Part shown: one piece after another, positions 1 to 61,292 of the stretch
Numbering within the stretch: position 1 is the first letter of the stretch
How the letters are laid out: each line of letters opens with the position of its first letter
IMG/VR virus record: IMGVR_UViG_3300013132_006127
DNA from: a virus
Direction: 5' to 3' (one strand)
Length of the DNA stretch: 64,000 nucleotides
Made by a program: the position numbers and the translations under genes
Notes under the pieces: generated by a model
Database searches by the model: none
The model's input: the letters and a program-made list of their open reading frames with translations, nothing else
Told to the model about the DNA's origin: nothing

Positions 1-3000
1 ATTAGTGCTACAAAGGTTAGAGATGCACTATTCAAAGGAGATGATGCTTTACTTCAAGAGTATCTAGACCCAAGCATTGCTTCTATCTTAATGGGTAATA
101 GAACACAGCTTCGTAATCGAAGTATGATGGTTCCTATGCTTTTGGAAAAAATAAAAGAAGTAGTAGAAGTAGAAAAAGCTAATTCTAATGCGGAAGTGCA
201 GAGATTATTGGAGTCAGCTCCCGGAGGTCCATACAAGAATGTTAGCGCTAAACTCAGAGAAAATGCTCCAGAGGTGGCGGAGCAGGTAAGGCAAATCAGG
301 TCTCAAAGAGATATGATGGCTCGCGGAGCTTTTGGATATAGAGCATACAATGTTATTCAAGCTTTATCTTCTCAATATCCTGAAATGTATGCTTTAGATC
401 CCAATAGGACAGCATCCGTATCCGCAGCAGCCCAGGATATAGATAGAGATATAATGATGGGGCAAGTTACGGAAAGTATGAGAGATTCTTTCCCGTCCAT
501 AGGTTCCGCTGAGACACTTTCTCCAATTCAAGAATCAATATTAGCTAGAGTTCAAAAAGAAACAGCTTCTAGAGGATCTGGATTATTACCAGCTTCTAAT
601 CAAGAAGTTCTAAAAGCTCTAGGGAATAGTGTTATTCCTAACGAGGATAGATTTGGTAAATTTGCTGGTAGATCGTTGTATGATCATCTTAAACTAGGAA
701 AGAAAGTAAAAACTAATCTTCCTTATTGGTTTAGCGACTATAAGACATTCATGAGAAGACCCGGCGAAATTACTGGTCTTACAGAAGAAGACGTATCCAC
801 ATATGCGGCTACTAGAGACTATGTTATAGATTTATTTAATAAACAAAAGAGTGGATCACAACAATCATTATTAGAAAGCACAGCTCAACAAATAGCCCAA
901 ACACAAATGTTAGCTATTGTTGGCCTTAGAGGTAAAAATGGTTTACAAGGCCCATTGACTTGGAACTTGGGTAATAACACAGCAGGAGAACCGGTCTCGG
1001 TATCTGCTACAATTATGGAAAGAGTGTTACCAGCTAAGTATAAAGCTGTAGCTGATTATATTAGTGAGCAAACCGGCAGTATAGTTCAGACAGCTGCTGG
1101 AATGATGGGAGAACCAGGATCATTAAAAAGTCTAGATCTTAAAAAGAGAGAAGTGCTTAATCAAGGAAATATAGAGGGTGGTATTTTTGAACAATTATTA
1201 GCTACTCTAGGAGCAGATGTGCTAGACGATGCTGTTAGAACACGAGCTATAGACTTTCCAAGTGGAATAGGAGAAGTAGCTGGTAAAGTTTTTGGTATAG
1301 ATGCCAATATACCAACAGAAGCTAAGAGAACGATTGACTCTACATCTAGAGCTAAGGCTATGGAGGAATTTCAAAGATACTTTAGAGGAGTTTATGGAGT
1401 ACCAGAACCGGAAGGGGATCTGGTACAACAGTTTGCTAAAGGTGGAAAAGTAGATGATTTATTAGTAAAATATAAAGACATTATTAAAAGTATAATGCCG
1501 GCTGAGTATATTGCTGATGATGGATTTTTAGTCGGTACAAATGTTGATATTAATAGAAATAATTCTATGTTTCTAAAAGCCTTAAAATTTATGATTCCTA
1601 ATGCTAATTTTGGATATACCAAAGGTACAAATTACTCAGTTTTGATAAATTCTTTGCGTAAAAATAAAAGTAAATTCACAGAATCAGAATATTCAGAGTT
1701 AGAAAAATTTGCTATAGAAAAGCTTAGTCAAACCAAAAATTCAATTACTCTCGGTCCTGGCGCCGAGAGTCTTTTACCGCATGAAGCTTTCCATACTATT
1801 CAGGGATTTTTAGCTTTAAATCATCCTCAAATCTTTGACAATCTACTACAACAGTCTTTAGCTAATAAAGATAGATACTTAGAAATATATACTAAATCTA
1901 AACTTAGTAAAAGTTTATTAGGAACATATCAGCCTGAAAAAATGTTTACTGATCCAAAAACAGGTAGTTCTTCTTTTAGAGGATTAACTACGATATTACC
2001 AGAAAAATATAAATCATCAGAAACAATAAAATCTTTAGATAAAGAAATATCATCTACATTAGGAGCTAATGAGATAATACCTTCTTTATTAGACATGATT
2101 GTTTTAGAAAAAAATACAGCAGCACAAAAATTACTTTCTGATATATTTTATTCATCAGGATTAAATGCTAATTTCGCTAGTACCATGCCACAAGGTTATT
2201 TCTGGGGAGGTAAAGTTGACCCTCTTGCTAAGAAGTATGGATTATCACAATCAGAATTTGAAGAACAGAAAAAAATAGCTAAATTTATGGGATTAAGCGA
2301 TAAAGATTTTGAGGAAAAGCTTAGACTGTTCGCTTCTCAAAAGAAACGCGTTAAAGGAGCTAAATTTGCCGCTTTAGATGCCGTGGCAGATTCTTCTGTG
2401 GCCAATCAAAGAGTTACAGCAGAACAACAAGCGTTATCTGAATTCTTACAAGCCACTAAATTTGCTGATGGAGGCACCGCTACTTTAGACAAGCCCTCTA
2501 AAAATTATGGTAAGATAAGCATCACTGAAGATGGAAATACTATTAGTGCAGGGTATCTTAAGAGTAATGATGATAGATCTGGATATGTCAATGCATATAA
2601 AATGAGAGATTATCTATATTACGTTGGTTTATCCAAAGCTACTAGTGGTTATGGGCCAAGATTATATGATGTTGTAATGGAAGCAGCTACTGAAAAAGGA
2701 GCTATGTTAACTTCAGATAGAAGTAGCGTTAGTGGCGATGCCAAAAGAGTATGGGAATATTATTTTAAAAATAGAGGAGATGTTAAAAAAACACCATTAA
2801 AACCAGATGATTGGACAAGAAATCAAGCAGATATTGATCCTAAACTATATGGAAGAGAAGAAACATGGCCCCCAGCCAATGATCCAGCATGGATATTACA
2901 AAGCGGTTATAGCAAATCTCCTTCTTTAATCAATGATCCAAGCGCTGTTATAAAAACAAACAGAAAACAAGATAGTAGAGCCATGGCTCTGCAATACTTT

Positions 3001-6000
3001 CAGAGAGCTGCCATGGGTGGTTCGATTAGAAGATTTGCAAATGGAGGCTCACCAGAAGATACTGTTCCAGCATTATTAACCCCGGGTGAGTTTGTTATCA
3101 ATAAGAAAGCTGCTCAAAGTATAGGATACGGTAAGCTTAACAGACTAAATCAAGCAGACAAATTACAAGGATATAATAAAGGTGGTCCTGTAGGAGGAAT
3201 ACAAAGATTTAATGTTGGTGGCAATGTTGCTTCTGAAGCTCAATTAAACGAGATTATAGCAGCTACATGGGAAGTCTTTCAAAAGATGCCAGAAGGTATT
3301 AAAAATATTATAGAGAAGTCCCTAGACTCCGCTTCTATATCTTTAAATACAGGTGATACTTTTGACGATATAAATTTAAAACTTAGACAACAACTAGTAT
3401 TTGCTCAAAAAAATATTGATAATTTAGGACCAGAAGTAGTAGAAGGAATTAGAAAAATTTTAGGAGCCGGAATTCGTAAGTTAGACGTTATAGAGTTAGA
3501 CACTATACGTTCTAGCTCAAGTTATAAAGGTCCGGGTAAAGAATATTATGAAGACGTTGAAAAAGCAAGAGCCGGTAGAAAAGTTTTCGAGTCAGGAGCC
3601 TCTGATGCTAAAGACGTAATGCAAGCTATGGCTAGGAGTGTAGGAGGTGTAGGAAGCGAAATATATCCAAAACCAGTCGTTAAACCAGAAGATTATTATA
3701 GTAGATTAGATTATAGCGATATTGGTCCATCCAGAGGGGTTAATGATAGAGGACAATTATACGCTAAAGCATTAGCTGGCGAAGACCCAATAAAAGTAAA
3801 TGCTCTAATTGAAAAGCTTAGAAAAGAAATGGAGGATGCGGCTAGAGCCGCTGGTATAGCTATCAGTAAATGGGGCAAGAGCGAATCTTGGGCAGCGTGG
3901 GATATTGGTAAACAATTGCATATGGAAAAAAATCCAAGAGAAAGCAGCGATAGATATCGTTTAGCTAATCCTTTAAATGATGCACAGCTTCAAAAAGAGA
4001 TAGTACAAAGACATTTAGCTTGGGAGGCTACTGGTGGCAGAAACGCTACTACGGGAGAAAGATTATCTTCTGCTGATCTTAAAGATTTGGGTGCTCGCAT
4101 TATGGAGCAAATAGAAGCCACTAAAGCCCAAACAGATGCCACCAAAGCCCAAACAGATGCAAATACTCAAACAACATTTCCTTTTATGGCTCCTCCAACA
4201 CCTTCTGGTCCTACAGGTCCGGGTGGTCAGAGAACATTTGCTTTTATGTCGGGTTCTGGTGCTCCTAATCCTTACTCAGCAACTTTACCATCTGGTATTG
4301 ATTATAATCCTGTTAGTAGAAGGATAAGAAGAAATACTAGAGAAAACGACCCCAATATACAAGAAAGATATCAAAGATTCTCTTCGTCTGTATTTAATAG
4401 ATCTATTGAGCAATTATCAACTAGAGCTAATATATTTGGTGGAGCTTTAGCTACAGCTATAGAAACAACATCAAGATTTGCTGGATCTACGACAGTAGCA
4501 GGAAAAACATTAAGTGGATTAGCTTTTTCTGTGGGTTCCGTAACAGGAAGTTTCTACCAAGCTGCTCAAGCTATAAGAGCTATTGGTAATTTTGCAGATT
4601 CTAGATTCGGACAGAGGATTCTTGGTCAATTTGCACAAAGTATAAATACAGTTAGCTTAAACAGATTTTTTAATCAGCAGATTAGAGGTATTTTTGGATC
4701 ATCTACAGTTGGAGGAATAGCAACAGCTTTTGGAGCCGGAACTGCGGCGGCTGTAGCCCTTACACAGACATTTATAGATTATAGTAATGCTCTTAAAGAA
4801 AGTAGAATAGAAGAAGCTCAAAAACAGCAAGAGAGAGCATTAACCAAGTCAGCAGAAGCTTTAGAAAAATATTCCAAGGTTCAAGATAGAGCAACTCTTG
4901 AACTAGCCAATACTTTTGCGACATCAGCTGGCATTGCAGCTATTAATGAAGCTAATGCTAGAAGTGCTGGAGATAGACGCTTTGGTATGGCAACAGGCAC
5001 TTCTTTGGGTGCCGGAGCCATAGCTGGTGGCGCAATAGGTACTTTTATTGCTCCCGGATTAGGAACAGCTATAGGGGCAGCTATAGGTGGAACAGTAGCA
5101 GCGGCTATTGCTCAATCGCTCGGTGCAGATAGAACATCTGGAACAACAGCCGAGGAAAGCTCATTGCTGCTTGGTAGAAGCAGAAGCTCTATATTAGAAG
5201 TTTTTAATCAAAGATTTACAACCGGCGAAACTAGCGAAGATATTATGAGAAGGCCGGAGTGGAATGCTCAAAGACAAGTTTTGGCTAGATCAAATGCTGA
5301 GGTGGAAGCAATTATCAGGGGCATTCAGTCTGATGCAACACTGACTGAGGATGTTAAGAAAGCAAGAATAGAAGAGGCTTTACAGATAGAAGCATCAGCA
5401 CAGTTAAGGCAACAAGAGCAGATATGGCTAAGACAAAAAGGATTAATAGATCTAGATAATGCTACAAAAGCTTATACCAGAAGTTTGAAAAATATGTTTG
5501 CAAATATGGATGAAGCTATCAATAGAAGTTCTGTAGCTCTAGAAAACTTTAACACTTCTGTAGAACTAGCCGAAGCCTCGGTTAAAGGTCAAGCTAGAAT
5601 AGGTGTTTTTAAGAGTGAAACATCTAATATTATCAGAAATCCCAGAGCTTCGACGAATGAAGAGAGAGCACAAGCTGCTAGTGTTGCCGGTTCTTTCTTT
5701 GGTTCAGAAAGTGGTACAATTAGAGAATTAATTAATATTGGACCAAAAATAGAATCTGCTGTGTTAGCATCTATACAAGCAGCACAAACGTTGCCCGGAT
5801 CAACAACGGATGAGGCAATAGCTGCTGCTATCAGAAAAAGCGTTAGAGCAGAACTCACGGAGTCGTCATTACCTCAAGATTTAAGTGATAAGCTTGGTCA
5901 ACAAATAGCCATAGAATTAGAAAAAAGAAGAAAGAGTGGAGATGACAAGGTAGATTTTAGAGATCTAGAAGAAGCTATTCCACAATTAAAAGATTCTATA

Positions 6001-9000
6001 GACGCTCTCAAGGGAGCACAAGATATTGCCATTAAGGCTTTGGAAGACTATGCTCAAAAAGTTGGTATTCTAGTTGATAAGACCAATACTTCAGTAGAAC
6101 TTTTAGTACAAGCCGGCGATTTACTAAGAAAAGCTAGTGAGATTAGATTCAATAGCGCCTCACAATTAAGCAGAACTTTTGGTTCCAGTATTGATGTAAA
6201 TGCTATACAAAGTTTTAGAGACACAACTATTCGTAACCAGACAGGGGGACCAGCATCGCCTGAAGGTATATTAGACAATATTAATAGATTAGAAAATAGA
6301 AGAGCATTTCAACAAAACCAATTACAATCAGCCCAAGACAGAGGAAGGTCAGGAGCTAGAGATGTATTAGGTTTTACTGATCAATTATCTAGAACCACAA
6401 GATCCTTAAGAGATAATCAAAAAGCATTAGAAGATCTAGCGGCCAATAGCGAACAAGCATCCGCAGCATTAGAAAAGATATCAGAGGTTCAAGCAAAAAC
6501 TCAAGCTGGACAAAATATAATAGAAAGATACTTAACGTCAACAAGAGAAGATAATTTTAAACTATCTTCTGCTTTTGAGAGACTAGATAATAATATGAGG
6601 GGTATGGTTAATGATCCTTTCGCTTCAAGAAATGTGTTTGAGGCAATGAGAGATAGCGATAATCCAGTTTTGGCTGCTGATCAAGCTATAGCTCAGGATA
6701 GAAGAGATACTCTCGAAGCATTTAATATGCTGGCTCCTTTCTTAGGAGATACAAGAGAGCAGAATACAATTAAGGCTAATGTTTTAGAGACTATGCTACA
6801 AGAGGCTGGCATAGGAATGACACCTATGTTTAATGAGGTTATTAAGTCTCTTAGAAATCCAGAAAATAATTCGGAGATGTCCCAATTAGTAGAGCAATAT
6901 AAAGAAGGAATAAAGATTCAGTCTAAGGCCAATGAGTTGCTCGCTGAATTGAACACAAATTTTGCTCAAAATCTTAAACAAAGTTCAGAAGAAGCATTTA
7001 AAAACGCCATAACAGATACTCTGGTTAAATTTGAAGAAGCCCAGGTATCTCATCTGCAAAAGATAGAAGAGATACTATCTAAACAGACCCCAGCCGCTGG
7101 TCTTTCTAGTGGTGGTGTGGTTTATAGAAATATCGGTGGCTCGATATTCCAGCCAAAAGGAACAGATACTGTTCCTGCTATGTTGACTCCTGGAGAATTT
7201 GTTGTCAATAAATCAGCAACACAAAAATATGGATCAGTATTAAATGCGATTAATACTAATACTTATGCTAGAGGAGGAAAGGTAAAATATTATGCTACTG
7301 GCGGTTATGTATCTAGTTTATTGAAAAATGAAACTGGTTTTACCTCTGCTAGTTCAGAAGCAGAAACAAAGAATTTTGGTTTATCGAGTGATTTTTATCA
7401 GAATCCACCAGATGCTGCTGGTAAAAGAAACAAAAATTTTAGTAAAAATAGACACTTTGATCCTGGACAGTTAACAGAAACTTTGAGAGACGCAAATACT
7501 GTAAGACTTATGAAATTAACAAATAATCCTAGTATAATACCATTAGGATTAAATGCTGTTGGTCCTGATGCATTCCCGTTAGGTGCTACATCTTCAGAAA
7601 ACTATAAAACATTTGAAAACTTTATTAATGATGGAGTTTCTGCAACTTCTGTTGGTATTGGTTTTTATCCAAGATATAAGATGGCTCTAAATGGTACTGT
7701 TTTAGCAGATAACGCACCAAACAATGTACAGGTTTCTCAGTTAGGACCAGCTATACCAGAAGCCCTATTCAAAAATATAGGAACTATTAAAGAAAGATTC
7801 TTAGAAGAGAGAGAAGCAGCGGAAGCCTTAAGATTAAAACCAGTGATAGATAGCGTTCTTCAGAATTTAGATCTTAACACATATCAAATATATAATCAAC
7901 AAAAATATACAGAAGCCTTGTCTAGTCAATTACCCATATGGTACAAGGAAGGTAAATCCGTTATCGATTTTGGTGGAGGTATAGATAATGCTATATTTAC
8001 TAAGGCTAAAGCTGATCTTAATAAGTTAGAATATACCAAAGGTTTTGGTGAAAAAGCTCTATTCTTGGTTCCTGGCACCAGTGATCCAGTAGTTAATCAA
8101 AAAATATCTGCTTTGAATAGATCTGGTATGCCAGTTGGATTTGATGTAAATAATCTGCAAATAACAACAGGGGATCCAGGATTACCTATTTATGGAGCGG
8201 GCGGCTTTACTGTCGATATAGCTAGTAGATCCTCAAGATCTGGACAAAAAAATCTATCAGTATTGCCACCATCTAAAATATATAGAACATCTAGAGATAG
8301 TATTAGTGAAAATTTAGAATTTTTACAACTAATTAGATCGGACTTCGAAGATTTAGAGAAGGATAGTTTTGGTCCAGAGACTATCTATTCCAATCAATAT
8401 GCTCTTTATCAGAATGCTCTTAGTGATATTTCTAAAGGTTTAATAGAAAAAGCTAAATTTAATAGAGATATTCTTGATCAAGACGAAGTAGCCAATTTAT
8501 CATCTGTAAAAGGAGATAGAATAGATCTCAGTAAGCTAACAGATCTTTATGTGTGGAGTAAGAGGTCTTTTGATGCTTCTAAAATCAAAACTAATCCTAG
8601 GTTTAAAAATGCCACAAATATTGGTTCTGATTTTCCAATTAAAAACATAGATACTAATAATATAGAAAATTTTGTTTGGTCTTTATCTGACAGTATCACC
8701 GGATCTGACTTTCTTAATAGTGTAAAACCATTTTTAGATCCTAAACAATATTTAATAAATGAAACATTTTCTGAAACATTTGATGCTCCATGGGCTATAG
8801 ATAAAAAAATCAATGTAGAGTTCCCATATAAGACCTTGAAAAAACTACCTATTTTTGATTTTAATAATGGTGGTTCTATTAGCAAAGAATACAATGGCTT
8901 TGGTTTATATGCCGATACATTTAATATGTTAGGTGATAATAAAACTATAAATCCATTCAAACTAGCCACTACAGATTATAATAACAATAAATTATTATTA

Positions 9001-12000
9001 ACTAAAACAGATGCATCATCTATATTATCTAATAAAATTAAACAATGGATCAATAGTAACGGTGGTCAAGTTCCGACAAAAGCTGTAGACTTACAATTAT
9101 TGTCCAAATTAGTACAGTTAGAACCTAGTGATTTGGATATTATTCCAGAAGATAACGATCTATCTAGAGAAACGGCGGCCGCTAGAAGAGATATTTTTGG
9201 AGCAAAAGGGAGCTTGTACCAACAATTAGCAGGCATTGGCGTTCTATATAGAGAAGGTGGCGAAGCTAATTTCGGTAATTTAGATCTAGATCCATCTATG
9301 GTTAATGATTTTAAAGATAAGGTGGATTTAAATAAAGCTTTTGCCACCAACGCTACCAATCAAAGGTTTCCTGCTTATGCAAATGGTCTACTAAATATAA
9401 AGAATGAATTAGTGAAGTCTAAAGAATCATTATTAGAAGATTTTATTAATCAATCTAGTATATCTAATTTGAATTTATCTGATTTAGCACCATGGGTTAA
9501 AAACTTACAAGATAGTAGAATAGGGGATTTATTTAGCGGAGGTCCGGAGGTCCCAGACAATCTAAGAAAGGTTTATTTGCAAACTTTGGGCTGGGATAAA
9601 ACACAAAAAACAGCAGACCTAATGAATGCCACCGAAGCTAAATATCCCGGAGCTTTCCAAGAATTGATGAGTCTGTTGCAGTTGGGTTTCTATGTTAATG
9701 GGGGTAAAACAGCAGCAGCATCAAATACACTATCGAGCGAGTTTAATGATCTGCAAAAAAGTTTCTTTGGCACGGAAGATTTAGATAAATTATCAGTTTT
9801 TGAAGATTCGAGAGTGGCTGGCAAGAGAGGCAAACAGTGGTGGAAAGCTGGAGGTCCAGATTGGGCAGGTTTTGCTAGATATAATCTTTCTATTATTTCC
9901 CGTAAAGGTATGATAGAAAATATTCAAAACATTCTTAATAAAGCTAGTCAGGCTTCATTTAATCAGCAAGACGCTAATGATCTAGCAGAAGATATACAGT
10001 CCTTATCCATAGGAGCAACGGGATCTGCTACTATTGGAGCAGAAACACCAGCTAATAATTTAACAGATTTATTAACTAAAGCTCTAGATACCACGAAAAT
10101 TTATACAGAAGGTTACAGACTGGATATAGCTGATGCTATTCAGAAATTTAATATGCCTGGAGGTGTTAAAGATCCTAATCTTGATAGAATCAAGTCTATG
10201 ATAGATCCATCGAGTGATCTATTGACATATTTAGCTTTTAAAGATGCTATTTTGTCACAGCCTATTAGTTCTGTTCAGGGTATCAAAGTACAAGGAGATG
10301 ATAGAGATATTAAAGCTCCTAGATTGTCAAACTATGCATTAAATACAGAAAGTATTAATGGAGTTAATCCTTGGTCAATATATGAAACATTTTTAGATAA
10401 TGCTGCATTTACCAACGTTTCTAATGCTTTTAATGAATTAGTCGATATGATAGGAGCAGCCGGGAAATTTACATTACAAGATCCAAGAACTATATATCAA
10501 GGACCGGTTAATACTTTTGATAGTAAATTATACGAAAACCCTGATCATAGATCGGCTGATCCTATTAAAGGTACCGGAGCTTATACAACATCTTATAAAG
10601 CTTTAGCTGGTACAATATATGCTACATTATTTGAAAAAGCTAAAAAAGAAGAAGCTCTCAGAGATAGCACAACAGAAGATTCAAATGTCATTTATAGATC
10701 AAAGGGTGGCTCCGTAGGATATTACAATAATGGTGGATCAATTATTAATTTTCAACCTAGGGGAACAGATACTATCCCAGCTATGTTGACTCCGGGTGAA
10801 TTTGTCATCAATAGACAGGCTACTCAAAAACATCTACCTTTATTACAAGCTATTAATAGTCAAAATTATCAAACCGGAGGAGTTGTCAAATATCTACAAA
10901 ACGGATCGCAAAACCCTGTATCGTCTGATTCTCCACAAGACTGGATCCGTCAATTTGTCAATGATATTAGATCAGCCTCTGATGAAGATATATTAGGTTA
11001 TGGTAATTCGAAACAAACAATGTCTTTGGATAGATTCAAACAATTTGTATGGGATTTAACAGCTGGCCGTTGGGCTGGTTTTGGAGGAGACATTCCTAGA
11101 GGTAGAGTCGTAAGAAAAGCTCAACCGGTGTCAGCCGATGTTTCTTTTGCTAGACCAAATCAAACATCTGTAAGCTTCAAGAGAGATGTGGCTGAAACAA
11201 CATGGACTCCATCATCTAGATCCATGGCTTCTCAGAGGAATAGACAAGAAAACCCATATATGCCACCAGCAGAAGATCCAACTGCGTATTCTCCATCTTC
11301 TAGAGCACAAGCTAGTAGAAGAGCTAGAGAATCATATAAACCTCAATATTCCGCTGAATCTTATATTAGCGATAGTGATGCTATTAATGCCTCGCAACAA
11401 TTTGAAAAAGAGTACAAAGAAAGAAAAGAGAGGATTCTTAAAAGAGAATTAATGCTAGAAGAAGGTCCAACTAGCAGTATTAATCTATCTACACCAACTA
11501 TGACATTTGAAAAATGGGATAGAAAAAATAGAACAGACGGTAGAATAGTAGCATATGACGCAGCTAGACAATTCTTGGCTATACTAAAGATCGCTGGTAC
11601 AGACATAATGGAACCCGAAAAGAAAACGGCGGGGGTTACTGCTTTCCCGATAAACCTATTGGGTCCATCGTCGCAAGAATCTGTATTTTCTTTACTATCT
11701 AATAGAGAATTATCAGTAGATGATCCTTATCCCTATCAAAAAATAGGTATTAATGAGGCATTAAATAGATTAGAGAAAGAATACGGATCAGATTTTGTTA
11801 AACAATATAGAAGCAGAGACAGGATTTCTAAAATAAGTACTAATGCTGGTTTGGTATACGATCCAAACCAAGGATATATCGCTTCTAAATTATCTGACTT
11901 TTTATTATCAAATGTACTAGAAAAACAAAAGAAGTTTGCTGTACCAACAGCAGAAGCAGTACCGGTGCCGGATGCAGAGGTAGCATATACTTCTACAAAA

Positions 12001-15000
12001 GCTGCTGAACCTGTATTTCCACAAAAACCAGAGAATAGATCCGTAACTAATGTTTCGGATGAAATATCTGTATTAGGTCAAGAGTTTAGAAAATGGATCG
12101 ATGTTTCTGGTAAATATAATACAATTGCAAAATTAATGTCCTTTGTTAATCAAAGTAGAGATGTTAAATTAAACAAAAATAATAATAAAAATATAGTCGT
12201 GCCTATAGATAAGCTAAGTTCAGGAGATAAAAATTATCTTAATAGAGTTAAGTCCTCTAGCAGTAGTATTCCTGCTCCTAAAACCTCGTCCACAAATAAA
12301 CCAGAAAGTCAACAAGTATTTAATAATGTAGATAGATTATGGTATGGAGGAAGATTATGGGATCTTAATAATGATGGAATAGAATCAGAAAAAATAGTTG
12401 GTAGAATTGATCGTATATTGGATGCCGAAAGAATTATGATAGATACCAATAGTGTTCCTGGAGGAAGTCTTATTCTCAGAAGAGAATTTATGAACCAAGA
12501 AGACTTAGACACTATTAAGGCTTGGGAAAATCAAAGAAGAATAACCGCAGTAAACAAACAAACCGGCGGGATGATTTATGCTTCTAATGGTCAATTGATT
12601 AATTTCCAGCCGAGAGGTACAGATACCGTACCAGCGATGCTTACTCCTGGTGAGTTTGTTGTAAATAGACAAGCTACACAAAAGAATTTACCATTATTAC
12701 AATCTATCAATAACTCCACAAGTAATAGTAAATCTTATATGAGAGGAGGAATAATTTATGCTGCTGATGGAGCATATGTAAGAGATAAGGCTGGTGGTCC
12801 AAGATCAATGCTTTTGTCACCAAGAGAAGCAAAAAAATTAAATGTTCCTTATCAAATAGGTAGAGGTTATGATGCTCAGTATTTTGACAGAAACGATAGA
12901 GGTATTGGTCCTATTGAATGGAGAATGATAGAAAAAGCTGATGAAGAATATGTTAAGAGTCAAGGTAGAAGTGGAATAAATTATTTTGATCATCCAGAAC
13001 TCAAAAGACAGAAAGCTTTTGCTACCGTTCCAGGAATGGTCGCATCTGGATTAGGGAAACTAGGAGAGTTAATAAATAATGCTATAGAATGGGAACCTTA
13101 CGGAAATGGATATAAGCCTGTTAAGATTTTCTCAAGCATGTTAGATATGATTAGTAATGTTGCTGTCGGAACAACAAGAGCTGCTGGTGCTTTAGCTGGT
13201 TTAACTGTGGGTTCTGTAGTTTCAATACCCGACATGCTTCTTTCTGGGACGGACTACCTCTTTCCTGGATCAAAAGATGCATTTACTAGAGCTATAGGTT
13301 TTGATACTTCAGAATTTGTTAATGTTATGAATGAGGGGGCGGCATTAGAGTTAGAAAGAGCGGTAATGAATTACGCTTCTTTATATAATAATGTATTAGG
13401 AGCTGTAGACTCTACTTTTGGTTCCAATTTAGAATCTACAGATTCTTGGGCTCAAGCAATTACCGGAAATCAAAAAAAACTATGGGAAGAAAAAATGGCT
13501 TTGGCTATTAGATCAGGTATGAAAGGAGGAACCAGTGGACGTGATCATGAACTTATGTTAGGAGCATTAGATGGTATAAGCGTAGCAGCTAGCACCATAG
13601 GTGGGGCGGCATTGGCGAGCAAGATAGGAAATATAAAGCTCGCTAAAGGTTTAACTACAATGATACCTGAAGAAACAGGAAGTGATGTTTTACGTGTATT
13701 GGCTGAAATCAATAATAGATTGGTTCAGGGACAAGGATATATTATGCAAGCGTCAGAGATCGCAGGAACGGTTGCTTTACCAAAAGATATAAAAGACGCT
13801 ATAGAGGCAAGTAAGCTTCAACCAGATACAGAAGATCCGCAAGAAAGAGCATCAAGAAGAGTTGCTGCTGTAAATTTTGCTAGAGGAGGTTTGGTTTCCG
13901 AGGTTTCTGGTTTATATCAAAGTAGATTAACGACTCAAAAAAATCTTTCACAAGCTAATGATCAGTGGTTTGTTGTACCATTAAAAGCTGGTAGAGGTAG
14001 AGGTTCACAGGCTGGTGATACGAGTAAGATTTTTGATGCTAATGGTAATATTTTACCATCAAATGAACTTTTGACATACGATATGAATAAATTAGCTACA
14101 ATATATGGTAATGATTCTAAGTTAGCCCAAAAAGCAGCATCGACAAAATATCCATGGTTTGATGCCAAACAACACAGACTCGTAATGGGTCAAGGAATAT
14201 ACAGAAACCAGAAAACATCTTTTAGTAAGCAAGATCCAGCATTAAAATTAATTGATGAATTAGCCTATGAATATAAAGCTATGCCAGATATTTTTGAAAT
14301 TAAGAATAAAGAAGCATATACCGATGAAAATATTGATTCGTCTAAATTTTTGAGTAGCTTGAAAGATTCAAAGGGTAATTATGTAAAGCAATCGGTAGAA
14401 CCAGCCGCTCAAATGCTTAAAGATAGAAGTAATTTTTTAACCACTCTATTTTTTAATCTAGAAGAAGCTTTAGATATAGTAGATGCATACATCAATAAAG
14501 AGGGAAGAGATAGTACTTTAAGATCAGCCTTTGCTGGCGAAGACCCAGACAATATTCTAAGTTTCCAAAAGACCGCGGTAGGATCAGAGATAAATAATAT
14601 AGATAATATTCTTAAAGAAGCAGAGATAAACCAGTATGCTCAAAAAGTAAAAAATAAATATAACCAAAGTAGAATATTAAATTTTGGAGAAACAAAGAAC
14701 TTAAAGTCTATCGTAGATTACTTTACTAGAAATAAAAAGCCAGAACCAAAAACACAGCCAACCGGTCCAGTTAATATGGCGGTGGGTGGTTTTGTGCCCA
14801 GTTATTATTCATCAGGGTCATTAGTAAATTTTGCTCCAAAAGGTACCGATACTGTACCAGCAATGTTAACTCCTGGCGAATTTGTAATTAATAAACGAGC
14901 CACACAAAAGAACCTACCTCTTCTAAAACAAATTAATAGTCAGAACTATCAAAGAGGAGGAGTTGTAAAATACTACCAGCAAGGAACCCAAACGCCTGTT

Positions 15001-15432
15001 CAACAAACTGGTGGATTGGGTAGTATGTATTCTTTATCATTAGATGATAAATCAATATCTTTAATTAGAGAATTTACATCAAGATTTAGTGAATTTAGTA
15101 ATAAATTGGCTAACTTAGCTATTCCATCTTTGAAGTTGGATGAAACAACATTAGCCTCATTGAATAACTTTACTCAAAGATTTGATAACTTTACCAAAGA
15201 GTTATTAAAGCTAAATATTCCGCCAGTTATAACTATAACCGGTAAACACGATGTAAATGTAAATATTAATGGCGCTAGTGTATTTAGTAATATGGATAAA
15301 TATGTCTCTAACATGATTAAAAACGAGATAAACAATGCTTTTGCCCAACTAGCAAGGGAAACGGATGGCGCTATCAGTATGAACTACAACCCGTCCGCAT
15401 ACAGCAATCAAAACAGTCAAAATATGGCTTAA
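1..15432 (+). CDS. Giant tape-measure-like polyprotein with embedded enzyme/effector domains (5'-truncated, >5140 aa)
   Basis: Frame is open from base 1 (ISATKVRDALFKGD...), so ATG 91 is probably internal. Ala/Gly-rich helical core with glycine zipper GAIAGGAIGTFIAPGLGTAIGAAIGG (~4981-5124). Five copies of DT[VI]PA[ML]LTPGEFV[IV]N flanked by F/YxxGG, as in the lambda gpH C-terminus. Ends with a TMP-like HDVNVNING strand followed by a helix. Confidence 0.88.
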   Translation: MSATKVRDALFKGDDALLQEYLDPSIASILMGNRTQLRNRSMMVPMLLEKIKEVVEVEKANSNAEVQRLLESAPGGPYKNVSAKLRENAPEVAEQVRQIRSQRDMMARGAFGYRAYNVIQALSSQYPEMYALDPNRTASVSAAAQDIDRDIMMGQVTESMRDSFPSIGSAETLSPIQESILARVQKETASRGSGLLPASNQEVLKALGNSVIPNEDRFGKFAGRSLYDHLKLGKKVKTNLPYWFSDYKTFMRRPGEITGLTEEDVSTYAATRDYVIDLFNKQKSGSQQSLLESTAQQIAQTQMLAIVGLRGKNGLQGPLTWNLGNNTAGEPVSVSATIMERVLPAKYKAVADYISEQTGSIVQTAAGMMGEPGSLKSLDLKKREVLNQGNIEGGIFEQLLATLGADVLDDAVRTRAIDFPSGIGEVAGKVFGIDANIPTEAKRTIDSTSRAKAMEEFQRYFRGVYGVPEPEGDLVQQFAKGGKVDDLLVKYKDIIKSIMPAEYIADDGFLVGTNVDINRNNSMFLKALKFMIPNANFGYTKGTNYSVLINSLRKNKSKFTESEYSELEKFAIEKLSQTKNSITLGPGAESLLPHEAFHTIQGFLALNHPQIFDNLLQQSLANKDRYLEIYTKSKLSKSLLGTYQPEKMFTDPKTGSSSFRGLTTILPEKYKSSETIKSLDKEISSTLGANEIIPSLLDMIVLEKNTAAQKLLSDIFYSSGLNANFASTMPQGYFWGGKVDPLAKKYGLSQSEFEEQKKIAKFMGLSDKDFEEKLRLFASQKKRVKGAKFAALDAVADSSVANQRVTAEQQALSEFLQATKFADGGTATLDKPSKNYGKISITEDGNTISAGYLKSNDDRSGYVNAYKMRDYLYYVGLSKATSGYGPRLYDVVMEAATEKGAMLTSDRSSVSGDAKRVWEYYFKNRGDVKKTPLKPDDWTRNQADIDPKLYGREETWPPANDPAWILQSGYSKSPSLINDPSAVIKTNRKQDSRAMALQYFQRAAMGGSIRRFANGGSPEDTVPALLTPGEFVINKKAAQSIGYGKLNRLNQADKLQGYNKGGPVGGIQRFNVGGNVASEAQLNEIIAATWEVFQKMPEGIKNIIEKSLDSASISLNTGDTFDDINLKLRQQLVFAQKNIDNLGPEVVEGIRKILGAGIRKLDVIELDTIRSSSSYKGPGKEYYEDVEKARAGRKVFESGASDAKDVMQAMARSVGGVGSEIYPKPVVKPEDYYSRLDYSDIGPSRGVNDRGQLYAKALAGEDPIKVNALIEKLRKEMEDAARAAGIAISKWGKSESWAAWDIGKQLHMEKNPRESSDRYRLANPLNDAQLQKEIVQRHLAWEATGGRNATTGERLSSADLKDLGARIMEQIEATKAQTDATKAQTDANTQTTFPFMAPPTPSGPTGPGGQRTFAFMSGSGAPNPYSATLPSGIDYNPVSRRIRRNTRENDPNIQERYQRFSSSVFNRSIEQLSTRANIFGGALATAIETTSRFAGSTTVAGKTLSGLAFSVGSVTGSFYQAAQAIRAIGNFADSRFGQRILGQFAQSINTVSLNRFFNQQIRGIFGSSTVGGIATAFGAGTAAAVALTQTFIDYSNALKESRIEEAQKQQERALTKSAEALEKYSKVQDRATLELANTFATSAGIAAINEANARSAGDRRFGMATGTSLGAGAIAGGAIGTFIAPGLGTAIGAAIGGTVAAAIAQSLGADRTSGTTAEESSLLLGRSRSSILEVFNQRFTTGETSEDIMRRPEWNAQRQVLARSNAEVEAIIRGIQSDATLTEDVKKARIEEALQIEASAQLRQQEQIWLRQKGLIDLDNATKAYTRSLKNMFANMDEAINRSSVALENFNTSVELAEASVKGQARIGVFKSETSNIIRNPRASTNEERAQAASVAGSFFGSESGTIRELINIGPKIESAVLASIQAAQTLPGSTTDEAIAAAIRKSVRAELTESSLPQDLSDKLGQQIAIELEKRRKSGDDKVDFRDLEEAIPQLKDSIDALKGAQDIAIKALEDYAQKVGILVDKTNTSVELLVQAGDLLRKASEIRFNSASQLSRTFGSSIDVNAIQSFRDTTIRNQTGGPASPEGILDNINRLENRRAFQQNQLQSAQDRGRSGARDVLGFTDQLSRTTRSLRDNQKALEDLAANSEQASAALEKISEVQAKTQAGQNIIERYLTSTREDNFKLSSAFERLDNNMRGMVNDPFASRNVFEAMRDSDNPVLAADQAIAQDRRDTLEAFNMLAPFLGDTREQNTIKANVLETMLQEAGIGMTPMFNEVIKSLRNPENNSEMSQLVEQYKEGIKIQSKANELLAELNTNFAQNLKQSSEEAFKNAITDTLVKFEEAQVSHLQKIEEILSKQTPAAGLSSGGVVYRNIGGSIFQPKGTDTVPAMLTPGEFVVNKSATQKYGSVLNAINTNTYARGGKVKYYATGGYVSSLLKNETGFTSASSEAETKNFGLSSDFYQNPPDAAGKRNKNFSKNRHFDPGQLTETLRDANTVRLMKLTNNPSIIPLGLNAVGPDAFPLGATSSENYKTFENFINDGVSATSVGIGFYPRYKMALNGTVLADNAPNNVQVSQLGPAIPEALFKNIGTIKERFLEEREAAEALRLKPVIDSVLQNLDLNTYQIYNQQKYTEALSSQLPIWYKEGKSVIDFGGGIDNAIFTKAKADLNKLEYTKGFGEKALFLVPGTSDPVVNQKISALNRSGMPVGFDVNNLQITTGDPGLPIYGAGGFTVDIASRSSRSGQKNLSVLPPSKIYRTSRDSISENLEFLQLIRSDFEDLEKDSFGPETIYSNQYALYQNALSDISKGLIEKAKFNRDILDQDEVANLSSVKGDRIDLSKLTDLYVWSKRSFDASKIKTNPRFKNATNIGSDFPIKNIDTNNIENFVWSLSDSITGSDFLNSVKPFLDPKQYLINETFSETFDAPWAIDKKINVEFPYKTLKKLPIFDFNNGGSISKEYNGFGLYADTFNMLGDNKTINPFKLATTDYNNNKLLLTKTDASSILSNKIKQWINSNGGQVPTKAVDLQLLSKLVQLEPSDLDIIPEDNDLSRETAAARRDIFGAKGSLYQQLAGIGVLYREGGEANFGNLDLDPSMVNDFKDKVDLNKAFATNATNQRFPAYANGLLNIKNELVKSKESLLEDFINQSSISNLNLSDLAPWVKNLQDSRIGDLFSGGPEVPDNLRKVYLQTLGWDKTQKTADLMNATEAKYPGAFQELMSLLQLGFYVNGGKTAAASNTLSSEFNDLQKSFFGTEDLDKLSVFEDSRVAGKRGKQWWKAGGPDWAGFARYNLSIISRKGMIENIQNILNKASQASFNQQDANDLAEDIQSLSIGATGSATIGAETPANNLTDLLTKALDTTKIYTEGYRLDIADAIQKFNMPGGVKDPNLDRIKSMIDPSSDLLTYLAFKDAILSQPISSVQGIKVQGDDRDIKAPRLSNYALNTESINGVNPWSIYETFLDNAAFTNVSNAFNELVDMIGAAGKFTLQDPRTIYQGPVNTFDSKLYENPDHRSADPIKGTGAYTTSYKALAGTIYATLFEKAKKEEALRDSTTEDSNVIYRSKGGSVGYYNNGGSIINFQPRGTDTIPAMLTPGEFVINRQATQKHLPLLQAINSQNYQTGGVVKYLQNGSQNPVSSDSPQDWIRQFVNDIRSASDEDILGYGNSKQTMSLDRFKQFVWDLTAGRWAGFGGDIPRGRVVRKAQPVSADVSFARPNQTSVSFKRDVAETTWTPSSRSMASQRNRQENPYMPPAEDPTAYSPSSRAQASRRARESYKPQYSAESYISDSDAINASQQFEKEYKERKERILKRELMLEEGPTSSINLSTPTMTFEKWDRKNRTDGRIVAYDAARQFLAILKIAGTDIMEPEKKTAGVTAFPINLLGPSSQESVFSLLSNRELSVDDPYPYQKIGINEALNRLEKEYGSDFVKQYRSRDRISKISTNAGLVYDPNQGYIASKLSDFLLSNVLEKQKKFAVPTAEAVPVPDAEVAYTSTKAAEPVFPQKPENRSVTNVSDEISVLGQEFRKWIDVSGKYNTIAKLMSFVNQSRDVKLNKNNNKNIVVPIDKLSSGDKNYLNRVKSSSSSIPAPKTSSTNKPESQQVFNNVDRLWYGGRLWDLNNDGIESEKIVGRIDRILDAERIMIDTNSVPGGSLILRREFMNQEDLDTIKAWENQRRITAVNKQTGGMIYASNGQLINFQPRGTDTVPAMLTPGEFVVNRQATQKNLPLLQSINNSTSNSKSYMRGGIIYAADGAYVRDKAGGPRSMLLSPREAKKLNVPYQIGRGYDAQYFDRNDRGIGPIEWRMIEKADEEYVKSQGRSGINYFDHPELKRQKAFATVPGMVASGLGKLGELINNAIEWEPYGNGYKPVKIFSSMLDMISNVAVGTTRAAGALAGLTVGSVVSIPDMLLSGTDYLFPGSKDAFTRAIGFDTSEFVNVMNEGAALELERAVMNYASLYNNVLGAVDSTFGSNLESTDSWAQAITGNQKKLWEEKMALAIRSGMKGGTSGRDHELMLGALDGISVAASTIGGAALASKIGNIKLAKGLTTMIPEETGSDVLRVLAEINNRLVQGQGYIMQASEIAGTVALPKDIKDAIEASKLQPDTEDPQERASRRVAAVNFARGGLVSEVSGLYQSRLTTQKNLSQANDQWFVVPLKAGRGRGSQAGDTSKIFDANGNILPSNELLTYDMNKLATIYGNDSKLAQKAASTKYPWFDAKQHRLVMGQGIYRNQKTSFSKQDPALKLIDELAYEYKAMPDIFEIKNKEAYTDENIDSSKFLSSLKDSKGNYVKQSVEPAAQMLKDRSNFLTTLFFNLEEALDIVDAYINKEGRDSTLRSAFAGEDPDNILSFQKTAVGSEINNIDNILKEAEINQYAQKVKNKYNQSRILNFGETKNLKSIVDYFTRNKKPEPKTQPTGPVNMAVGGFVPSYYSSGSLVNFAPKGTDTVPAMLTPGEFVINKRATQKNLPLLKQINSQNYQRGGVVKYYQQGTQTPVQQTGGLGSMYSLSLDDKSISLIREFTSRFSEFSNKLANLAIPSLKLDETTLASLNNFTQRFDNFTKELLKLNIPPVITITGKHDVNVNINGASVFSNMDKYVSNMIKNEINNAFAQLARETDGAISMNYNPSAYSNQNSQNMA
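3007..3222 (+). repeat. TMP GG/GEFV cassette, copy 1
   Basis: AAMGG..FANGGSPEDTVPALLTPGEFVINKKAA..YNKGG..FNVGG. Confidence 0.9.
4117..4158 (+). repeat. 21-bp tandem duplication (ATKAQTD x2)
   Basis: gccactaaagcccaaacagat / gccaccaaagcccaaacagat, one mismatch. Confidence 0.85.
7102..7305 (+). repeat. TMP GG/GEFV cassette, copy 2
   Basis: LSSGG..RNIGG..PKGTDTVPAMLTPGEFVVNKSAT..YARGG..YATGG. Confidence 0.9.
10693..10908 (+). repeat. TMP GG/GEFV cassette, copy 3
   Basis: YRSKGG..YNNGG..PRGTDTIPAMLTPGEFVINRQAT..YQTGG..LQNGS. Confidence 0.9.
12556..12774 (+). repeat. TMP GG/GEFV cassette, copy 4
   Basis: KQTGG..ASNGQ..PRGTDTVPAMLTPGEFVVNRQAT..YMRGG..AADGA. Confidence 0.9.
14776..14988 (+). repeat. 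TMP GG/GEFV cassette, copy 5 (canonical C-terminal position)
   Basis: MAVGG..YSSGS..PKGTDTVPAMLTPGEFVINKRAT..YQRGG..YQQGT, about 150 aa before the stop. Confidence 0.9.
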
Positions 15433-15445
15433 AGGGTAATTTATT

Positions 15446-18400
15446 ATGGCAGAAATTCAACCAAATCTATTCTGGAGTAGCGGCAATAATTCTTTGATAA
15501 TTGGTAATTCTGGTTCTTATACAAATCCTATAGACGCTAGTGTTGTATTGGGGGCCACACAAATAGCCTCATCAGGACTATACCCATTAAAAATTAGCCT
15601 TAATCAAGGAAACTTCTTCATTCTTACTAAAGATGGTAAAGTGGCCATCAATACTCCAAGTTTTCCTGTATATGAATCATCCCCAAATTTTCATATGGTT
15701 GGAAGATGTGCTGTTTTTGAAGGCAACTGCGGAGCAGGAGGAGTAGCACTAACGTTGTATAACAATCCAGATGTGGTACCACAAGTTGGAAGCATAGCTG
15801 GATCATTAAACCTATCCGCAAGAAATAATAATCGTAATGTTGTAAATTTCGCACAAGTACAATCCAAAATACTTAATCCGCTCAAAGGACAAACAAGAGG
15901 TCAGTTTGTTGTTAATGTTGAGTCATCTGGCGTCTCAAAGTCTATACTGAAACTAGATGATAGTGTTAATCAAATAGGTATTAATAATGTTGATAATGCT
16001 ACATACACAAGCGTTTTAGGTTCAGGTAATTCTTTATCTTATGTAAATAATTCTAAAGTTATTGGAGATGGAAATTTTGCTAATCGTAGTAATAATTTGT
16101 ATTTACTAGGATCAGATAATAGTATTGATTTAATTAAAAATAGTGTTGTATATGTATTAGGTTACGATGTTGGGGAAAGTCCACTTCTAGGAATGCCGTC
16201 TGATTTGAATTGGGGTCCAAATGATGACTTAGCACAAGGTGATATAGTAAAGATAGAAAATAATGCTCTTTTAAACGGATATTATGTCGCTAATACTGGT
16301 ATATGGACAAAGATAGATGATACAGTTGCTGTTGCGTATATAGGGACTTCTAATATTCTAATTGGTAGTGAAAATGCTCTATCTGGAAATAATGTTATTG
16401 CTATAGGTAATTCTTCTTCTGTTAGTGGCAATAATATTTTTATGTTTGGTAGTTATAATAATGTTAAAACACAAAAACTAACAGGTATTTTATCTTCTGG
16501 TAGTAGCGATATAGAAAACTCTTTTATACTTGGATCATATAACTCTATAGATGCTAGTGGGACTATTGTTTTTGGTAGTCATAATGCTTCTAGCGGCGTG
16601 TCGGCTATTGTTCTAAATGGTTCTCATAATACAATAGCCAGCGGATCCATAAGCAGTGTGGTATTAGGTGACAATAATATCGTAAACTCTGTTTCTGGAA
16701 TAGTTTTAGGTTCTAATAATTTAGGATCTATAGATTTAACATCTTTATTAGGATTTAATAACAATATAGTTTTATCCAGTGGTAATATTCTAGGATCATA
16801 CAATAGGGTTAGTGGCGTCAACAATAATATTATTGGTAATTCACTTAATGTAACCGGCTCACAAATATCTGCTATAGGATCTAATTTAAGTGCTAGTGGG
16901 AACAATAATTTAATTTTTGGTAACCAGCAAAATTTATTATCTAACTCAGGTATTTTTATTGGTAATCATGGATCTATAAGCGGTAATAATAATATAGATA
17001 TAGGTTCACATATACTTTCTAGCGGTTCTCATTCTATTATTACTGGTAATAATAATAAAACAGAAGATGTACTAAAAATTAATTTGTATGGTCATAATAA
17101 TATACTCAGATCTGGCACATATATTGATGCTAATGTCATTGGACAAAACAATATTATAAGTTCTGGTATACAAAATATCAATGTAGTAGGAGATAATAAT
17201 AAGCTAGATAATATATTTGATTTAACAGTACAGCCAGTAGAAGCTTTTTATGACTCTGAATATTCTGTTCTTACTGATTTAACTAATAGTAATCTATTCA
17301 GAGTTGGAGACAGGGTATCATTAAGAGATTCAGACGAGATCTTTGTTATAGAAAATAAGATTCCACCATCCAATGATCAATCCTCACAATTCACTATAGA
17401 GTTTCAAAATCCTATCCCTAGTAGTTTGTTGAATCAAACACTATATATTAAATCACAAACATTACAAGATGAAATTACATATAATTATAGTAATCCAAAT
17501 ACTATTATAGGTAATACTAATACTATTATTGGTATGTCTGGACTTATTATTGGTAATCTAAATAAAGCTTCTGGCAATATGATTACTAATATATCTTCTT
17601 CATCTAATATTACTGGTAATAATGTTATTAATATCGGCTCCAAACTAGTTTCTAGTAGTGGTAACAACATTATTAATATAGGACACAATTTTAAAGGAAT
17701 TACTAATGATTTAACTAATATTGGTTTTAATAATACTAATGAATATCAATTTAGTTCTATATTAGGGTCAGATAATTTTGTTATCAACGGAGATGTTATT
17801 GGCAGCGGGAATAGAGTCTATGATAGAAATACGTCTATCGTAGGAGATAGTAATACTATTATTGGTTATGGCAAATTTTTTAATACTAATGATAGTTTAA
17901 TTTTTTCTTCAGGTTCTTATGATTCTTCATTAGATGCTATAGTTCTTAGTCAAAACGCTGCTAGATTCTATCCTACCGACGGAAGAGTAGTTAATTCACA
18001 GAAATTAATTGTTCAACTTGCTATAAGCGGCACATATCTTCCTGCTTTTTCTGGTTACGCCACCTTTGTTAGAGGCGACCAGATGTATTTTGCAGAGAAG
18101 GGCCCTAATTACGGAACAACACTCAACCCATTATTTGATACATTTAATCCGGTACCACTACAAAATTTTGTAAAGGCCCTATTCCCAACCTCTGCTATAC
18201 CCGACAATATAGACGCTTTTGTTTATCCTATTACTGACGAGAATAAAGTGGTAATTGGCGATGAAAACTTTATTACAGAAGGTCGTTATTTAGGTGTTTT
18301 TGGTAATAATAATAAATACGGTACTGATGTTAATAGTAATAGATTTGAAATAGGTAGTACTACTTCATACTCTGGTATTGTTATCGGACATAATAATACT

Positions 18401-30681: not shown

Positions 30682-31683
30682 ATGACATATATTATTAATA
30701 AAGATTGCATCATACTACCAGCAAAACCAGAAAGATCACCTACTCCTAGTTTCACTAGTAAGCCCACTAGCACACCAACTCTTACTCCATCAAATACAGC
30801 AACACCGCCAGTAACACCAACGGCTACTAATACTAGAACTCCTAGTCAAACATCAACAGTAAGCGCAACTCCAACAAAAACCGCCACACAAACACCCTCC
30901 AACACCCCTACTGTTACAAGAACTCCTACAGTAACTCCAACAAATTTTTGTTACTACCAGGATAGTTTGCCTGAGACTTGTTGTGGGGAATTTTTCTTAT
31001 ATGCTAGAAGCGGATTATGGTATAATACTAATGTTTATTTTAATCAAAATGATAGGTTGTATATCACAGCAAAAGGTTGTGCTTCCTACAATACCTCTTT
31101 AGCTCCTTCAACTAATTTTGGACCAGAAGGAACAGATACCGGGCTATTAACAGTCGAAGGAAGAATCAATGATAGCGGCACTTATAGTTCAATTTTAAAA
31201 ATTGGAAAATTATATGATAGTTACGCTCCTATAAAAGGATTATTAGAATTAAGAATATATGATATTAATTATAATGATAATGGTGGAGGTTTTTGTGTTT
31301 GTGTAAAAAAAGACCCAGGAGGAGATTGTTTAGCTAATAATTGTGTTCCTCCGGAAGCGTCTCCAACGCCAACGCCCACACAGACCCGAACACCATCTAA
31401 AACTCCGGGAACAACCCGAACTCCGACCCCAACACAAACACCGTCCAGCACCCCCTGCTTACATCCTATGGTAATATGCATAGGGTTATTTGATGACTTT
31501 ATGATAAATAATGGCATTATAGTAGAATTACAAGTAGAAAAAAATCCATTATGCTGTTGCCAAATACAATATTCGTTAGATAATACTAATATATGGACTC
31601 AAATGCCACAACAATATATAGATTGCGATCCTTCTTTTTACTACACTGTTAATACTGTTTGCTTCGGAGATATTATACCATGA
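30682..31683 (+). CDS. TP-stalk protein with LecA/PA-IL-like lectin domain
   Basis: WYNTNVYFNQNDRLYITAKG...VEGRIN...LKIG...GLLELRIYDINYNDNGGGFCVCV (~30991-31305) follows the PA-IL-like jelly-roll pattern W.xT.....D.L.I.A.G...GRI...G.L.L...D..Y.DN.G.F.V. Confidence 0.65.
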   Translation: MTYIINKDCIILPAKPERSPTPSFTSKPTSTPTLTPSNTATPPVTPTATNTRTPSQTSTVSATPTKTATQTPSNTPTVTRTPTVTPTNFCYYQDSLPETCCGEFFLYARSGLWYNTNVYFNQNDRLYITAKGCASYNTSLAPSTNFGPEGTDTGLLTVEGRINDSGTYSSILKIGKLYDSYAPIKGLLELRIYDINYNDNGGGFCVCVKKDPGGDCLANNCVPPEASPTPTPTQTRTPSKTPGTTRTPTPTQTPSSTPCLHPMVICIGLFDDFMINNGIIVELQVEKNPLCCCQIQYSLDNTNIWTQMPQQYIDCDPSFYYTVNTVCFGDIIP

Positions 31684-58178: not shown

Positions 58179-58179
58179 T

Positions 58180-58509: not shown

Positions 58510-58511
58510 AG

Positions 58512-61291: not shown

Positions 61292-61292
61292 A

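Follow-up and report, generated by a model that had tools for sequence, protein, structure and literature searches.

We analysed a stretch of 64,000 nucleotides of the virus recorded in IMG/VR as IMGVR_UViG_3300013132_006127; this whole stretch is referred to below as the window. It encodes the C-terminal part of a very long tail tape measure protein, P0004, and our subject is a compact module within this protein, built around an SHD1 domain (SLA1 homology domain 1, PF03983). The module consists of three candidate SH3-fold barrels and one further conserved segment, separated by linkers. Judging from its sequence, the central barrel is beyond reasonable doubt a genuine SHD1; the upstream barrel (copy 1) is likely to be a diverged SHD1, and the downstream one (copy 3) is a separate module that is predicted to have a similar type of fold. 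The features are the following.

1..15432, plus strand: tail tape measure protein P0004, C-terminal 5,143 residues, a single open frame that is open at the 5' end of the window

10690..10908, plus strand: tape measure cassette that forms the N-terminal boundary of the module, with the core GTDT[VI]PAMLTPGEFV[VI]N; found as an internal BLAST repeat, 81–82% identical in relatives

11482..11706, plus strand: copy 1 (P0004 residues 5228–5302), an SH3-fold barrel that ends in a helix and is probably a diverged SHD1-like domain

11707..11955, plus strand: conserved segment (about 83 residues, motif PYPYQ) that adjoins the end of copy 1; 63–72% identical in close relatives

11956..12072, plus strand: linker A, rich in Pro, Ala and Val; 26–43% identity to relatives

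12082..12258, plus strand: central SHD1 domain, PF03983 (core 12085–12240, P0004 residues 5429–5480)

12259..12333, plus strand: linker B, rich in Ser, Pro and Thr; 38–42% identity in the relatives P0005 and P0006, missing together with copy 3 in P0007

12334..12546, plus strand: copy 3 (P0004 residues 5512–5582), a separate conserved module, predicted to be an SH3/chromo-like barrel with a helix

12550..12780, plus strand: next tape measure cassette, an internal BLAST repeat that forms the C-terminal boundary of the module

An exact database match gives the full length of P0004, 6,543 residues, the first residue encoded in the window being residue 1401. The domain PF10145 (PhageMin_Tail) is found in residues 191–384, upstream of the window (79.7 bits, for a cut-off of 33.2), the record of the exact full-length protein carries precomputed PF10145 and PF03983 domains, and several PHROG families with the annotation "tail length tape measure protein" match the repeated cassette of P0004. 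By the usual sequence criteria P0004 is a tail tape measure protein, which is what it had been called in the original prediction, made from the letters of the window and their open reading frames. Homologues of 6,093–6,682 residues are encoded in five independent assemblies, which indicates that the length of P0004 is not an artefact of assembly; ordinary long tape measures are about three times shorter. In an all-helical tape measure, each residue accounts for about 0.15 nm of tail, so that a tail close to 1 micrometre long would be expected for an all-helical protein of this size. Either the tails of these phages are extraordinary, or much of P0004 does not measure length. In a second, more distant phage clade, whose contigs reach 238 kb, the tape measures are at least 4,648 residues long.

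The peptide from which SHD1 was originally recognised is present letter for letter at 12085–12240, in frame 1. PF03983 matches the central copy with 37.8 bits (gathering threshold 23.7, E 1.7e-9) over profile positions 9–65 of 67, and the match is retained, with 34.1 bits and an E value of 2.4e-8, when 3,143 residues are scanned together. A profile made of four sequences of the domain finds, in the Protein Data Bank (PDB), entry 2HBP, which is the SHD1 of yeast Sla1 (E 8e-4). A phmmer search of 1.84 billion representative proteins returned 54 other proteins, all of which align to the same 60 residues, and hhalign matches the central copy to a profile of 96 SHD1 domains, built from the proteins recovered by phmmer, with a probability of 99.4%. 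The domain is conserved in the relatives of P0004: PF03983 gives 28.9 bits in P0005 and 39.1 bits in P0007 (19.7 bits in P0006, which is below threshold), and the signature residues R, W, D, K-L, P, K-x-S, D and Y are invariant in P0004–P0007, at an overall identity of 43–64%. The identification of the central SHD1 is thus fully confirmed, by the Pfam model as well as by the match to 2HBP and the comparison of profiles.

The case of copy 1 is more complex. It has no Pfam match at E ≤ 10 and no BLASTP similarity to the central copy; for this copy, the hidden Markov model of the 96 SHD1 domains finds nothing in P0004, and in the equivalent region of P0009 only a noise-level hit (score −3.0). The comparison by hhalign of an alignment of six copy 1 sequences with the diverse SHD1 profile gives a probability of 62–70% (P 4e-5 to 7.5e-5), which lies under the usual 90% level of confidence; 43–48 of the 54 columns are aligned, in the register expected of an SHD1, and an insertion of 11 residues precedes the I-x-V-P strand. 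As a control, the alignment of six giant proteins was cut into 243 segments, and each of them was compared with the SHD1 profile. Outside the SHD1 core and its edges, only segments from copy 1 rise above the noise (24.8 and 22.6, for a noise maximum of 16.3), and a segment over the second half of copy 1 scores 20.5. This signal depends on the diversity of P0008 and P0009, since it remains within the noise with the four close relatives alone and emerges after these two proteins are added. When copy 1 is compared with a shallow, phage-only SHD1 alignment, the hhalign probability is just 13.5%.

The AlphaFold model of copy 1, which has a mean predicted local distance difference test (pLDDT) score of 65, shows four strands followed by a helix. 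When it is compared with 48,161 PDB chains, 2HBP comes first (Z 5.3, root-mean-square deviation 2.8 Å, 58 of 66 residues) and is the sole chain at Z ≥ 5, the runner-up being at 4.3. Sequence searches of the PDB with the profiles of copy 1 and copy 3 returned nothing, and Foldseek searches of the PDB with the two models returned nothing at E ≤ 0.001, the weak rows being mainly small SH3-like barrels. Since the hhalign match, the signal in the protein-wide scan and the match of the model to 2HBP all agree, we consider that copy 1 is, in all likelihood, a diverged SHD1.

Copy 3 starts with the invariant motif R-x-W-Y-x-G-x-x-W-D-x-N-x-D-G and ends with ED...W. Ten members of this family were compared, from P0004, P0005, P0006, P0008, P0009 and P0010: the module is present once in each of P0004, P0005, P0006 and P0009 and three times in P0008, it is absent from P0007, and the fragment P0010 contains three complete copies and one that is cut off. 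In P0008 (residues 5588–6046) and P0010 (residues 98–625), the three or four copies are in tandem, with linkers rich in Pro, Gly and Thr between them. This suggests that the number of copy 3 modules varies between related phages. No member has a Pfam SHD1 match or a consistent Pfam family, BLASTP finds no alignment between the central copy and the flank that contains copy 3, the hhalign probability against SHD1 is 0.1–3.7%, and the protein-wide scan does not rise above the noise at this position. The model (pLDDT 57) leaves out the first 29 residues and shows five strands and a C-terminal helix. Compared with the same 48,161 chains, this low-confidence model matches best the chromodomain 7VRF (Z 5.8), then 2HBP (rank 2, Z 5.7), then more chromodomains; the searches of the ESM Atlas by features and by shape gave no usable lead. 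Going by this model, the fold of copy 3 is probably that of an SH3-type barrel like those of chromodomains and SHD1, and the module belongs to a lineage-specific family.

The original prediction had described two degenerate SHD1 copies on either side of the central one, at 11506–11685 and 12352–12525, for which 11482–11706 and 12334–12546 are more suitable limits. The first of these holds as probable, considering the hhalign probability of 70% and the first rank of 2HBP (Z 5.3) with the model of pLDDT 65. The second is no more than a candidate: copy 3 has no SHD1 signal in its sequence, and its model is of low confidence and leaves chromodomains and 2HBP tied. A "degenerate copy", read without tools, would therefore be right in the case of copy 1 and is unproven in that of copy 3.

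The cassette that bounds the module is about 70 residues long. Internal BLAST finds it in P0004 at residues 2404–2439, 3765–3837, 4964–5036, 5584–5660 and 6324–6389, that is, at positions 3010–3117, 7093–7311, 10690–10908, 12550–12780 and 14770–14967 of the window; in addition to these five repeats, there are two weaker matches in or near the part of the protein that is encoded upstream. The three candidate barrels and the PYPYQ segment occupy a single interval between cassettes, from 10690–10908 to 12550–12780. The cassette is also found in 253 places of bacterial genomes (one genome per species), mostly in Nostoc and other cyanobacteria among the best 80 of the 253 places, and Clavibacter phage CN1A has it in its tape measure.

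In each of the six giant proteins, copy 1 is followed by the PYPYQ segment, which is still recognisable in P0008 and P0009; this segment has no Pfam match and no PDB sequence match. Among close relatives the domains are 47–82% identical, whereas the linkers are 26–43% identical, which suggests folded modules that are under selection and are carried on flexible tethers. The module is restricted to one sub-lineage of these phages. The array is a lineage-specific, variable insert.

The tape measure gene is directly followed by an open reading frame (ORF) of 2,240 residues (15446–22165), which has no significant family match; its sole PHROG match is marginal and to a family of unknown function (E 4.9e-4). 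This ORF is kept in 21 relatives at 37–79% identity and follows the tape measure in every relative locus that was fetched, and it may encode a tail-tip or hub protein of this phage group. Its relatives sit on contigs of up to 238 kb, so that the group appears to be one of large phages; the copy of the present phage is on a contig of 149 kb, and we appear to be dealing with an uncultured phage genome of at least about 150 kb.

Further downstream, large ORFs encode fn3, RCC1-propeller and FGE-sulfatase-like domains and match tail fibres or minor tail proteins of PHROG. The ORFs at 22906–27894 and 35430–40511 contain several fn3 domains and RCC1-type beta-propellers (336 and 181 bits, RCC1-like domain) and are probably receptor-binding fibres. 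FGE-sulfatase-like domains, which have the C-type-lectin fold, are found in the tail-fibre-like ORFs at 31659–33221 and 35430–40511 (74.4 and 35.2 bits); this fold is a variable ligand-binding domain in the targets of diversity-generating retroelements. On the minus strand, 57471–63777 contains ten consecutive small ORFs of 137–300 residues, none of which has a Pfam match, and the GC content goes down to 0.27–0.28 at 60001–64000, in the last 4 kb of this block. The 64-kb window contains no tRNAs, and the phage has no cultured relative among 50,697 phage records.

The distribution of SHD1 in bacteria is uneven. PF03983 is found in 44 of 151 genomes of Verrucomicrobiota, some of which have 12 matches, and in 3 of 151 genomes of Planctomycetota; it is absent from the 151 genomes of Pseudomonadota, the 151 of Bacillota and the 14 control genomes. 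The enrichment in the Planctomycetes–Verrucomicrobia–Chlamydiae (PVC) group that had been predicted is therefore real, though it is carried for the most part by Verrucomicrobiota. These bacterial proteins had also been described as exported, and this applies to about half of them: 27 of the 50 nearest bacterial SHD1 proteins have a signal-peptide-like N-terminus according to a crude hydrophobicity test. In these proteins the domain often stands right behind the signal peptide, and many of the bacterial relatives contain 2–4 copies per protein.

Regarding the origin of the phage domain, the nearest clusters in the ESM Atlas are mostly from Verrucomicrobiota and Planctomycetota, and the sole match in a named genome is to Novipirellula rosea (38% identity), whose genome has 16 SHD1 matches. 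On the other hand, the best non-phage matches among the 1.84 billion representatives are just 27–45% identical, with E values no better than 2.8e-7, and the top ten include one fungal protein. A search of 401 genomes of Verrucomicrobiota with an E cut-off of 1e-4 gives one match, with 32% identity. The GC content at third codon positions is 0.167 in the central domain, compared to 0.207 in the gene, and is thus gene-like. Because the central domain is common to four diverged phage relatives, any acquisition must have happened long ago, and it is not possible to name a donor. The taxonomy of the best hits therefore points mostly to the PVC group at the level of clusters, without a close donor and with a fungal protein in the top ten, so that the nearest homologues are neither plainly outside this group nor cleanly within it. 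The proposal that the domain is derived from the host is not supported.

Past the cassette, the C-terminal end of the tape measure has matches on contigs from bins of Planctomycetaceae, Verrucomicrobiales and Gemmata, and also of SAR202. It is important to note that phage contigs in binned genomes are weak evidence for a host. One of them, the Verrucomicrobiales contig L006, was considered as a close relative and rejected, since it has no downstream gene in common with this phage.

Comparison with known systems helps to define what is particular here. In yeast, SHD1 is cytosolic and binds the endocytic signal NPFx(1,2)D (PMC2199253). The central copy keeps R-x-W-x-D, G-K, A-K-L, V-x-L and V-P-x-x-K-L-S-x-x-D-x-x-Y, the family signature, in agreement with the profile match to 2HBP, and 2HBP is also what the model of copy 1 matches best among the PDB representatives. 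However, the phage domain is part of a virion protein, NPFx(1,2)D is not enriched, and neither copy 1 nor copy 3 passes the Pfam model. The exported SHD1 proteins of Verrucomicrobiota and Planctomycetota contain the same family, often in tandem with linkers and behind signal peptides, but their identity to the phage domain is 27–45% and none of them is a tape measure. According to a survey by Kaur et al. (2018, PMC5906684), the SHD1 of bacteria is found in extracellular proteins, where it is combined with secreted chromo-like domains and accompanied by SH3 domains. The best match of the low-confidence copy 3 model to chromodomains, and the pairing of SHD1 with a chromo-like domain, are reminiscent of this; copy 3 differs in that it has no Pfam match and carries an extra and conserved N-terminal stretch, rich in Trp, Gly and Asp, which is not confidently modelled.

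Accessory domains in tape measures are an established theme, since some siphophage tape measures embed peptidoglycan-active motifs. P0004 resembles these proteins in that a folded accessory is placed inside a PF10145-type tape measure, encoded upstream of what may be tail-tip and fibre genes; the accessory here is predicted to be a non-catalytic array of SH3-fold adaptors, rather than a wall hydrolase. We found no match to SHD1 or to the module among the 50,697 phage records, in DNA and protein searches that included a bacterial SHD1 query, and no SHD1 in the PHROG families that P0004 matches at E ≤ 0.001. Pattern scans of IMG/VR found no relatives, a word-based search for longer proteins with the central domain gave none, and SHD1 in a phage tape measure was not found in the literature that was searched. 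SHD1 inside a tape measure is a new domain combination.

The explanation that we favor is that the modules are ligand-binding adaptors. The array would be organised as beads on a string: three SH3-fold barrels of 60–75 residues, each ended by a helix, and the segment of about 83 residues, with rapidly evolving linkers rich in Pro, Ser and Ala between them. In siphophage infection, the tape measure is expelled first, and the tape measures of several phages contain accessory domains that are active on the envelope. Once P0004 has left the tail and entered the host envelope, the modules may fold or become exposed, and would then bind a component of the envelope, for example a wall polymer or a peptide motif in a protein of the periplasm or outer membrane. 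This binding would fix the corresponding region of P0004 in position, and the adjacent hydrophobic segments, rich in Gly and Ala, would meanwhile help form a conduit for DNA. An acquisition of the domain from bacteria would be old rather than recent. An extracytoplasmic binding role fits with the fact that the bacterial SHD1 relatives have several copies and that about half of them look exported. We give this combined explanation, in which the identities of the domains are taken together with the mechanism, a probability of about 0.5. Within it, our confidence in the domain identities is high, and the adaptor mechanism in the host envelope after expulsion is put forward as a possibility, and tentatively.

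Several observations weigh against this explanation. The central SHD1 is missing from P0008 and P0009, copy 3 is missing from P0007, and the second clade has none of the three modules, as judged from the C-terminal 3,330 residues of one of its tape measures; this patchy presence implies that the array is dispensable for the basic function of a tape measure. Confidence in the modelled structures is low to moderate (pLDDT 65 for copy 1 and 57 for copy 3), and Z values of 5–6 may reflect an arrangement that is common to small barrels. No ligand is known for any bacterial SHD1, and the ligand motif of yeast, NPFx(1,2)D, occurs once in the 19,106 residues of the structural genes, a count that is uninformative. 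Last, the module lies about 960–1,300 residues from the C-terminus, in a part of the protein that may or may not leave the virion.

Another hypothesis is that the modules act inside the phage, where they would bind a tail assembly chaperone, tail-tip or hub proteins or other parts of the tape measure, and would organise or anchor the long tape measure during assembly. It may be so, considering that SH3-fold domains are general protein–protein adaptors, that the module is flanked by conserved cassettes which recur along the protein, that a tape measure of 6,543 residues plausibly needs extra organising contacts, and that no ligand from a host is known. However, P0007, P0008 and P0009 are tape measures of similar length that lack parts of the array, and the second clade does without all of it; the bacterial relatives are, according to the crude signal peptide test, mostly exported; and no repeated motif that could be a partner came out of the NPFx(1,2)D scan of the structural genes. 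We consider that a function in assembly is rather unlikely.

The patchy presence of the array, the variation of copy 3 from one to four, and the fact that the tape measure is a mosaic of inserts bounded by cassettes could also be explained if the modules were passive passengers, small foldable spacers with no specific ligand. This is at odds with the better conservation of the domains than of the adjoining linkers, and with the SHD1 signature, which is invariant in four relatives that are 43–64% identical; the latter speaks for a fold, and probably also a surface, that is under selection, and makes the passenger hypothesis improbable in our opinion.

The original prediction proposed that the domain came from a Planctomycetota or Verrucomicrobiota host and serves to mimic or engage the SHD1-bearing envelope proteins of that host. 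The measured enrichment of SHD1 in the PVC group, the match to N. rosea and its 16 SHD1 matches, the nearest clusters in the ESM Atlas and the matching contigs in bins of Planctomycetaceae, Verrucomicrobiales and Gemmata (with SAR202 among the bins as well) are all in its favor. On the contrary, no close donor is found, either among the representatives, where identity is 27–45% and one of the top ten is fungal, or in the 401 Verrucomicrobiota genomes, where the best is 32%; the composition of the domain is fully adapted to the phage gene; the binned contigs say little about the host, L006 sharing no downstream gene; and mimicry is purely speculative. We regard this proposal as very doubtful. 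As for the possibility that the match to SHD1 arose by chance or from low complexity in a very long protein, which could be suspected of a short, Lys/Asn-rich domain with a GC content of 0.25, it is negligible, in view of the E value obtained when 3,143 residues are scanned together, the reciprocal match of the profile to 2HBP, the 54 SHD1 proteins that phmmer aligns to the same 60 residues, and the conservation of the domain in relatives.

Returning to the adaptor explanation, in its most specific form the SHD1 and chromo-like array of these large, uncultured and presumably siphophage-like viruses, whose tape measures have about 6,000–6,700 residues, would be a docking device that grips one specific protein in the envelope of a host from Verrucomicrobiota or another PVC phylum when DNA is delivered. 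We see this as a long shot. If it were true, the array would give a first experimental handle on the ligands of bacterial SHD1, and a marker of host phylum for phages that cannot otherwise be assigned.

Whatever its role, the array has a bearing on a domain that is abundant in the exported proteins of Verrucomicrobiota and of some Planctomycetota. Because a tape measure has a defined job, which is to cross the host envelope, finding SHD1 in this setting narrows the search for what the domain binds. It also adds a predicted array of non-catalytic adaptors to the types of accessories that tape measures are known to carry, and it may provide a clue to the hosts of these large uncultured phages.

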